Assembly (NCBI GenBank): GCA_965205485.1
Contig: OZ242180.1
Location: 1,984,001 to 2,048,000 of the forward strand
Length of the DNA: 64,000 nucleotides
DNA from: Candidatus Latescibacterota bacterium
GTDB lineage: Bacteria > Latescibacterota > UBA2968 > GCA-2709665
Direction of reading: 5' to 3'
Positions 27,001 through 30,000 of the stretch are shown here, in pieces (position 1 is the stretch's first letter; each line of letters starts with the position of its first letter). A program made the position numbers.

Positions 27001-30000
27001 CGACGCCGGGATCTACTGGTTCGAAGAGCCGTTTCCTGAAGACCGGGCGTTCAATGAGGCATTTAAGGAAGCCATCGAACGTTGGGGCTACAATACGTTC
27101 GTGGCGGACGGCGAGTCCGGGCCGCCGCCGCCGGACTTCTTCGATATGGTCGAAAGTGGATGGATCGATATCGTACAGCACGATTTCCGTTACAAGGGGC
27201 TCACATGGTGGAAAGCCACCGCGGAACGCATCGAACCCTGGGGTGCGCAGTGCGCCCCCCACTGCTGGGGTAGCGTCATCGAGCGATACGCCCACGCCCA
27301 CTTCGCCGCTTCCGTTCCCAACTACAGCCTCCTGGAAGCCGCCCCCGCGGAGATGCCCGGCATCGCCCTGGACGGGTGGCGGATGAAAGACGGCAGGCTG
27401 ACCGTGCCCGATACGCCCGGCGCGGGATTCGACGTCGAAACGGACGTGCTGGAACGGGGCGTGACGTCGGATGGCGGATTTCGCATCGGCATGCACGATC
27501 GCCAGCGCCCCCGACGCCCTTCGCCGGCACGCGTATCCTGAAAGGAAGTGCATGCCAACGTACAACATCGCGGTACTCCCAGGAGACGGCGTCGGGCCGG
27601 AAGTGGTCGCGGAGGCGCTCAAGGTGCTTCTGGCGCTCGAGGAACCGCATCCCGATCTCCGTTTCACATTTTCCGAACACCGGGTTGGCGCCGGGTGTTA
27701 CGCCGAAACCGGGGTTGACCTTCCGGAATCCACGCTCGAGGCCTGCAAGCAGGCCGACGCCGTGCTCTTCGGCTCAGCCGGCGACCCGGACATCCGGTTT
27801 CCCGACGGCACGGAAATCGCACCGCAACTCACGCTGCGCTTCGAGCTGGACCTGTACGCCGGGATACGGCCCATCAGGAAATACCGTGGCGTGCCTCCGC
27901 TTCTGGACGGAAACCCGCCCCTCGACTACGTCATCATGCGAGAGAATACCGAGGGCCTCTACGCCTCCCGAGGCGCCGGGGTCCGCCTCGGAGACAGCCT
28001 CGCCGTGGACAACATGGTCATCACCCGCGCCGGTACCGAGCGGATCGTCAGATACGCTTTTGAAATCGCAAAGCAACGGAAGGGGGCGCCGGCCGACGGC
28101 AGGAGCCGCGTGACGTCAGTGGACAAGGCCAACATTCTGAAGAGCATGGCTTTTTTCAGGCAGATCTACGACGAGGTCGCGGAATCCTATCCCGGCATCG
28201 AACGGGACTATGCCTACGTGGACGCATTCACGGTGTACCAGCTTCGCAACCCCGCCTGGTACGACGTTGTCGTCGCGGAGAATATGTTCGGAGACATCAT
28301 CTCGGACCTGGCCGCAGCAACCATCGGCGGGATGGGGATGGCGCCCTCGGCCGACGTCGGCGACCGCTACGGCGTCTTCCAGCCGTCCCACGGCACCGCG
28401 CCGGATATTGCCGGGAGCGGTACCGCCAATCCCATGGCACAGATCCTCTCCGCCGGGATGATGCTATCGTGGCTGGGCGCACGCCATGACGATACGGAAG
28501 CCATCGCTGCCTCGGAGACGATCGACCGCGCGGTTGATCTGGCGCTGGGCGATCCGAAGAACCACCCGGCCGATCTCGGAGGCGCCGCCGGGACAACGAA
28601 AGTGGGCGACGCGGTGGCCGATGCCGTCGCGAACCCGGGTTAATACACGAGGAAAATGCCATGACTAAAAAAGAAAAGAGGAGTCTCGTCAATCGCGCCG
28701 TGGGCGCCGAGTCGAAACGGGCACGGGTACTTTCGAGTAAGGTGCACGCATGGGCGGAACGGCCCTTCCGCGAAGTCAAGTCCTCGCGGGCGATCGCCGA
28801 CTACCTGGATTCTCGCGGCTTCGAGGTCGATTTCCCTTTCAACAAGATTCCCACGGCGTTTCGCGCAACCCGGGGAACCGGAGAACCGGCGGTCGGCATG
28901 CTGGGCGAATACGACGCCCTGCCCAACTGCGGCCCCGAAGAAGGTCAATGGGGTCACGGCTGAGGCCATAACCTCCTGGGCGTTGCCCCGGCCGTGGGTG
29001 CGGTCGCCGCTGCGAAGATCCTCGAATCAACCGGAATATCGGGCAAAATCGTGTACTACGGCTGTCCGGCGGAGGAAACCCTGGGTGGCAAAGTCTACAT
29101 GGCCCGCGACGGCGCCTTCCGGGACCTGGACGTCTGCCTTGCGTGGCATCCGGGGGATGAATCGGGCGTCAACAATTTCGGCGGGTCGTCGTTGGACTCC
29201 CTCGTCTATGAGTTTTTCGGCCGCACGGCCCACGGCGCGTCAGCCCACCGGGGCCGCAGCGCGCTGGACGGGGTGATGCTCACGGACGTCGCCGCCAACT
29301 ATCTCCGCGAGCACGTCCCCGAAAACGTCAGGATCCATTCCGTGATCCGCGACGGAGGCGACGCACCCAACGTGGTGCCGGCCTATGCGAAGATCTGGTA
29401 CTTCGTTCGAGGCAAGGACCGCGCGCAGGTCGACGACGTGCGGGAACGCCTCACCGCCTGCGCCAGGGGCGCCGCCAGGGCGACCGATACGAAGATGAAA
29501 TGGTCGCGAATCACCGCCGTGTACCCGCGTCTGCCCAACAAGGCGATGTGTGAAATCGTCCGAAAGAACCTCAAACTCTTCGGGCCTCCCAAACCGACGG
29601 AAGCCGACGTGAAGCACGCCGAAGGCCTCGGCTACAAGAAAGGTTTCAACACGAAGATCGCCAAGGGCAGCGGCTCGCAGGGACGGGGATCCACGGACGA
29701 GGACAACGTATCCTGGCTGGCCCCGCTGGGACGCTTCGAGATGGTCTGTTACGCGAAGGGAACGCCCGGCCACCACCGGGATATGGCCGCGCAGGCTGCC
29801 CTGCCCTTCGCCGATCGTGCGGTCCGGCAGACCGCGAAAGTCTTCGCCGGAAGCGCGGTCGACCTCTGCCGGGACCCGGAAAAACTGAAAAAGGCGCGCG
29901 CGGAGTTCGAAAAACGCTCGGAAGGATTCACATACGACCCGCTGGTTCGCAAGAGGCAGAAAGTACCCGTCGATCCGCCGTAGCGGGGTCTCAAAGCTGT

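Follow-up and report, generated by a model that had tools for sequence, protein, structure and literature searches.

In the 64,000-nt stretch of the Candidatus Latescibacterota bacterium genome analysed here (the window; contig OZ242180.1, referred to as C1), we identified one gene that very probably carries a UGA decoded as selenocysteine (Sec), giving an M20D amidohydrolase predicted to use Sec101 as a bridge between two metals. Direct translation of frame 1 of 28661-29983 (+) gave 440 codons, interrupted once by the TGA at 28961-28963 and closed by a terminal TAG. The internal TGA was found in the protein context W-G-H-G-stop-G-H-N-L-L-G, which places the predicted Sec within G-H-G-U-G-H-N. 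The features of the gene, in positions of the window, are as follows.

28649..28653 (+): GAGGA, similar to a Shine-Dalgarno sequence, 7 nt ahead of the start ATG (28661; read directly from the sequence)
28661..29983 (+): gene of an M20D amidohydrolase, with one UGA read through (translation, profile match and AlphaFold model)
28961..28963 (+): in-frame TGA as codon 101, predicted to give selenocysteine where related enzymes have the metal-bridging Cys (alignments and codon survey)
28967..28969 (+): His103, equivalent of the N-AGA zinc ligand His-107 (alignment via the homologue L153)
28989..29006 (+): SECIS-like hairpin with a 7-bp stem and the 4-nt loop GGGU at 28996-28999 (comparative evidence)
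29072..29077 (+): Glu138-Glu139 (EE motif); Glu139 is the equivalent of the N-AGA zinc ligand Glu-141 and Glu138 the likely general base (alignment via L153)
29147..29149 (+): His163, equivalent of the N-AGA zinc ligand His-168 (alignment via L153)
29771..29773 (+): His371, likely equivalent of N-AGA His-370 (invariance, spacing and HmrA alignment, with no direct 6SLF alignment)

When ORFs were called with translation table 11, the same stretch fell into two ORFs, one coding for 100 aa and the other for 329 aa. The survey's finding had taken the two calls as one 440-codon gene with an in-frame TGA, and our results agree with this: they lie in one open frame, and only the joined protein passed TIGR01891. 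The read-through protein scored 186.3 bits (cut-off 153.75) over residues 26-373. The separate halves scored 47.8 and 121.7 bits, both under the cut-off, and matched the consecutive profile parts 6-70 and 90-353. Contigs listed from three of four public runs spanned the TGA without difference, and hence the TGA is no read error; since these runs come from one study and are possibly the source samples, the agreement is not independent. Promoter and terminator scans gave results at chance level. No RNA data set was listed for the gene, which carries no information on its expression.

Subsequently, the family and fold of the product were examined. Besides the M20D family HMM match above the cut-off, the M20 two-domain fold was predicted. 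The AlphaFold model (pLDDT 90.7; 62 sequences; metal-free, with Cys at position 101) was closest to HmrA (Foldseek E 7e-35; VIA Z 46.6, rmsd 2.0 A over 384 residues), followed by PM20D2 (VIA Z 43.5) and N-AGA (VIA Z 33.5). As had been claimed before, U101 aligned with the C of the signature GHACGHN in both HmrA (3RAM, E 1.6e-42) and PM20D2 (7YH4). PMC7209930 describes Cys-105 of N-AGA as bridging both zinc ions, with His-107, Glu-141, His-168 and His-370 as the other ligands; PMC11511702 concurs on the ligands in its section 8, which also gives a general-base mechanism for M20A. Following the alignment from 6SLF through L153 to the query, the N-AGA ligands mapped to U101, H103, E139 and H163; in the mapping through L153 the numbering was shifted by the same single residue throughout. 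The earlier statement that the M20D Cys ligates the active-site metal thereby gained a source, in that N-AGA Cys-105 aligns with U101.

The ligand set Cys(bridge)-His-Glu-His-His and the EE motif thus correspond to U101, H103, E138/E139, H163 and, by invariance and the HmrA alignment, H371. Neither the other ligands nor the EE motif varied among the full-length proteins (105 of 105, counting the query), and at the protein level the Sec position was occupied by Cys in all 104 full-length database homologues other than the query. The Cys-bridged M20D enzymes HmrA (3RAM), human PM20D2 (a beta-alanyl-lysine / Xaa-Arg dipeptidase, 7YH4) and N-AGA (6SLF) have the fold, H-x-C-G-H, EE and His ligands in common with the query, whereas the query, at 18-29% identity to them, has UGA (Sec) at the bridging Cys and an in-frame SECIS-like hairpin.

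Next to the alignments, the codon at position 101 was followed across genomes. A search of the phylum gave 85 matches in 82 of 168 genomes. Orthologues at 68-100% identity contained exactly one TGA in 55 genomes (54 besides the host). The sole close stop-free orthologue, in genome G154 at about 67-68% identity, had TGC at the Sec position. A further 29 matches were distant (34-45% identity), 28 of them stop-free and one with a TAG; the latter (L073, G006:C295:3302-4480, 36% identity) has Cys at the ligand position, and its in-frame TAG is located elsewhere in a 953-aa open frame. These counts differ slightly from the earlier ones (79 of 161 genomes; 53 others with one TGA), with the pattern unchanged. 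Among 130 fetched loci, duplicates included, codon 101 was TGA in 64 of the 65 loci with at least 60% identity, the exception being the TGC of G154, and TGC or TGT in 65 of 65 loci below 60%. The reported TGA at one column in Sec forms, with a Cys codon there in stop-free homologues, was accordingly reproduced.

Outside the phylum, 401 genomes of a second phylum yielded nine matches in eight genomes, all with TGC, and 301 genomes of a third phylum yielded no match at E 1e-110. A pattern scan of metagenomes gave, among the at least 119 matches listed, 16 homologues (69-75% identity, same clade) and 103 unrelated sequences. Within these samples of metagenome matches and of second- and third-phylum genomes, no Sec form was found outside the clade. 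The stop-free subfamily members of 438-441 aa (52-76% identical) resemble the query in length, motifs and invariant residues; unlike the query, those of which the DNA was read (the nine second-phylum matches) have TGC and no stem plus loop (0 of 9). In another phylum, two Cys-type subfamily members, L277 and L284, are arranged in tandem (G273:C54:1087-3758; 52% and 59% identity to the query).

That selenium bridges two metals at a hydrolytic site is, judging from these alignments, strongly to be expected. An unlikely alternative would be that Sec is inserted but is no plain bridging ligand, serving as a redox switch or nucleophile or accompanying a changed metal or reaction. Most selenoproteins catalogued in PMC13188914 are indeed redox-related. 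Furthermore, the two further M20D genes of the host, both Cys-type paralogues, keep TGC, and selA-positive relatives keep Cys in their distant homologues; one enzyme has therefore been singled out for selenium. However, the remaining ligands and the EE motif are invariant, no CxxU-type motif is present, and a Cys orthologue exists at about 67-68% identity.

The hairpin after the UGA was then considered. A hairpin about 30 nt after the UGA had been described as common to Sec forms, and we located its stem at 25 nt and its loop at 32 nt from the UGA. Stem and loop occurred at the same register in all 52 distinct TGA forms, as against none of 66 Cys forms. The bacterial SECIS model given in section 5 of PMC13188914 specifies loop size, G position and a spacing of 16-37 nt, and the hairpin conforms to that section in loop size, G position and spacing. 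In 33 Sec sequences at <92% identity, taken from 51 distinct ones, the entropy at four-fold sites of codons +6 to +15 was at most 0.35 bits at six of nine sites, compared with 0 of 125 elsewhere. The mean over the four-fold sites of the hairpin was 0.29 bits, and the lowest of 117 other windows was 1.20. Of the cells compared, 99.6% pair.

Single-sequence folding of the SECIS region was no better than that of shuffles (z +0.6 to +1.4), and covariation was not significant: one pair showed a two-sided change, and 91 of 500 shuffles reached as much. Loosely defined hairpins followed 213 of 1558 ordinary TGA stops, 29 of them with at least 7 pairs. The case for a SECIS rests on the synonymous-site constraint and on the contrast between forms with TGA and forms with Cys. 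Pro110 (codon 28988-28990), whose codon contributes to the stem, lies within the predicted helix 103-124; position 110 is occupied by Gly, Ala or Ser in many of the Cys forms, and by Pro in some deep-branching ones.

The host genome has all of selA, selB, selC and selD. The genes selA (547.6 bits), selB (above the cut-off) and tRNA-Sec (73.4 bits) are clustered at C1:3225171-3228695, and selD, carrying its own TGA, itself encodes a selenoprotein (C-G-U-A-A-K; G000:C1:2394761-2395684, -; 7-bp hairpin after the UGA). ARAGORN found 48 tRNAs, a single one with a TCA anticodon, which belongs to the selAB cluster and has the score of a tRNA-Sec; a relaxed threshold added noise alone. TGA terminates 1558 of 2788 long ORFs and is the commonest stop of the genome, showing that it is not reassigned. 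Genome-wide de novo scans for further Sec genes by coding score and hairpin gave 620 and 25 candidates and were discarded as too noisy. One tandem pair in the host (L289:660-1643, at G000:C1 about 4604560-4605540, together with a second copy whose TGA is at C1:4605772) has an N-terminal thioredoxin-fold-like L-G-H-N-U-x-x-C and a hairpin after each TGA. By eye, the first copy starts like a signal peptide and its tail resembles a dockerin/EF-hand; the two are probably UxxC redoxin selenoproteins.

Among the 55 genomes with TGA, selA was detected in 54, and the exception, G074, had selD, tRNA-Sec and a cut selB. As selA is widespread in the phylum, in 131 of 168 genomes, and these genomes are related by descent, this co-occurrence is weak evidence. 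In G154 (86% complete), where the codon is TGC and the hairpin is eroded, no selA, selB or selD and no tRNA-Sec above the cut-off were found; this one incomplete genome is the Cys control for loss of the machinery. In its genus-mate G155, selA, selB and selD were not found, and the tRNA scores were weak, near the cut-off. The three genes were likewise not found in G092 and G093, and their absence there and in G155, all of the same class, suggests that the Sec trait was lost repeatedly within it.

Taken together, the Sec machinery, the one TCA tRNA, the use of TGA as the main stop, the constrained hairpin, the split between hairpin and codon, and the Cys orthologue in a genome with no detected machinery support the claim that the in-frame TGA encodes selenocysteine, and on sequence grounds SelB-directed insertion of Sec at codon 101 is highly probable. 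It is very unlikely that the UGA is read mainly as Cys or another residue through a suppressor tRNA, a mischarged tRNA or code reassignment. Such read-through would suit the Cys of all homologues, and elsewhere the Sec pathway is known to insert some Cys when selenium is short. It is opposed, however, by the prevalence of TGA as a stop, by the identity of the sole TCA tRNA, and by the perfect coincidence of hairpin and TGA.

In six of six pairs, dN/dS was 0.08-0.20 upstream and 0.06-0.12 downstream of the TGA, indicating purifying selection on both parts. A pseudogene, or a split gene giving 100-aa and 329-aa proteins, is therefore scarcely credible, even though gene callers divide the frame and databases carry the 294-336 aa fragments: 55 genomes, with identities as low as 68%, have the same stop at the same codon and no further stop, and the 329-aa product, which begins past His103, would be without two of the five ligands.

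About 100 stop-free relatives at 57-76% identity were found as protein sequences, some of which bear the source names Planctomycetota, Chthoniobacteraceae and Kiritimatiellae. In a quick tree (84 rows), for which the Sec/Cys column was masked, 21 Sec rows and 14 Cys rows formed one weakly supported group (SH-aLRT 84) nested among Cys forms. Six Sec/Cys changes were needed, three of them forced. From these sequences, one gain of Sec with later reversions to Cys appears likely.

The neighbouring genes were examined as a guide to the substrate. The following are annotated around the M20D gene.

26186..27541 (+): enolase-superfamily (MR/MLE) gene heading the same-strand cluster; the true start is probably after the TTG call (neighbour annotation)
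27471..28643 (+): beta-decarboxylating dehydrogenase (isocitrate/isopropylmalate/tartrate family), 17 nt upstream, a probable operon partner (precedes the gene at 21 of the 30 loci taken from close relatives)
30048..31085 (+): M19 dipeptidase-family gene, downstream (present at 18 of these 30 loci)
31173..32174 (+): gene for a dehydrogenase of the zinc-binding type (MDR; follows the M20D gene at 29 of these 30 loci)

The same-strand cluster runs in the order MR/MLE, beta-decarboxylating dehydrogenase, M20D gene, M19, MDR dehydrogenase, flavin-reductase-like gene and sodium:solute symporter, and the gaps flanking the M20D gene are 17 nt upstream and 64 nt downstream. A frameshift suspected in the upstream MR/MLE gene was not confirmed, its ORF being open. 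More distant members have other neighbours, the cluster not being kept, and the second-phylum Cys matches have unrelated ones. Divergent from the cluster, and adjoining it across the genus, is the gene for the chromosome segregation protein SMC (22388-26092, -). Farther upstream, 19934-22009 (+) encodes, with no internal stop, a protein of 691 aa that carries a TlpA/ResA-like redoxin domain at its C terminus and matched the WAxxUGC-motif model NF041054 weakly (45 bits, cut-off 300).

The cluster suggests catabolism of a small amide-linked acid, with no specific substrate named by the neighbours. By analogy with homologues at 26-29% identity, a dipeptide or an N-acyl-amino acid with a free carboxylate would be a somewhat favoured substrate. 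The survey's finding had also put the protein with AbgB, and JGI calls several close homologues 'aminobenzoyl-glutamate utilization protein B'; the likeness is at the level of the label. The AbgAB system is defined by an abgA partner and the abgT transporter beside abgB. AbgT (PF03806) was not found in the host genome (97% complete), the control search being positive in 4 of 14 genomes, and beside the M20D Sec gene there is no second M20 gene, the neighbours belonging to other families. With no AbgT family match and no adjoining M20 subunit gene, a function as AbgB is unsupported, and the name is a similarity label.

It is most improbable that the UGA and hairpin mainly provide selenium-sensing translational control of the enzyme or, by polarity, of the downstream genes, with the chemistry of the residue secondary: the mid-cluster position with short gaps and the interleaving of Sec and Cys forms on the tree would fit this, but the UGA falls exactly on the one ligand Cys and stays constant while neighbours change between families, and no neighbour has an evident selenium link.

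UshA-like and glutamine-amidotransferase-like selenoproteins have hydrolase folds. Both types are included in the list of PMC13188914, and hence 'first hydrolase selenoprotein' would overstate the present case. Of the idea of an unlisted, hydrolytic selenoprotein family, the first part is supported as far as the lists compared go: Table 1 of that article (2026; 119 prokaryotic selenoprotein families) has no M20 or amidohydrolase entry. The second part was no novelty, as that list already contains hydrolase-type folds. A term search found no M20 selenoprotein in deep-Sep (main text and four supplements) or in the main text of the Haft and Gwadz preprint, and no selenoprotein-named model of NCBIfam June 2026 matched the query. 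An M20 selenoprotein is thus absent from the lists compared, the BSepDB family table and Haft and Tolstoy 2025 standing outside direct comparison; the table of PMC13188914 takes in the families of the latter.

Sec is a metal ligand in FdhA (Mo/W) and in [NiFeSe] hydrogenase, and is predicted to be one in SaoL, SaoB and MbdU. The query has in common with them the UGA, a coding-region SECIS, the replacement of a metal-contacting Cys and the greater frequency of Cys homologues. Those cases are redox or organometal enzymes or binding proteins, whereas the query is predicted to have the two-metal Lewis-acid site of a hydrolase with Sec bridging both metals.

We propose that SelB and Sec-tRNA bind the hairpin in the coding sequence, whereupon Sec would be inserted at position 101. 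The product is predicted to fold as an M20D amidohydrolase with metal-binding and dimerisation domains, in which Sec101 would bridge two metal ions (Zn or Mn) in place of Cys, with His103, Glu139, His163 and His371 as the other ligands. As in the homologues, the metals would activate water and Glu138 would act as the general base, so that an amide bond is cleaved. The enzyme probably feeds the small catabolic cluster with its dehydrogenases, dehydratase/racemase and second dipeptidase. Because close Cys orthologues exist, selenium is not essential to the chemistry; its likely benefit would be a ligand that stays deprotonated and withstands irreversible oxidation.

It is likely that this is the first natural family with Sec bridging both metals of a non-redox hydrolase, one kept across entire families of uncultured Latescibacterota and returned to Cys where the Sec machinery was lost, with Sec/Cys pairs at 67-76% identity. 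The gene has been kept in databases as shortened fragments in dozens of genomes, which the present reading corrects, and a family with a sharply defined SECIS would be added to the selenoprotein catalogues. The reasons given for the cellular cost of selenocysteine rest mostly on redox catalysis; a selenolate-bridged hydrolase, if true, would be a clean non-redox case, and with its close natural Cys orthologues the question of Sec versus Cys becomes testable in one scaffold.
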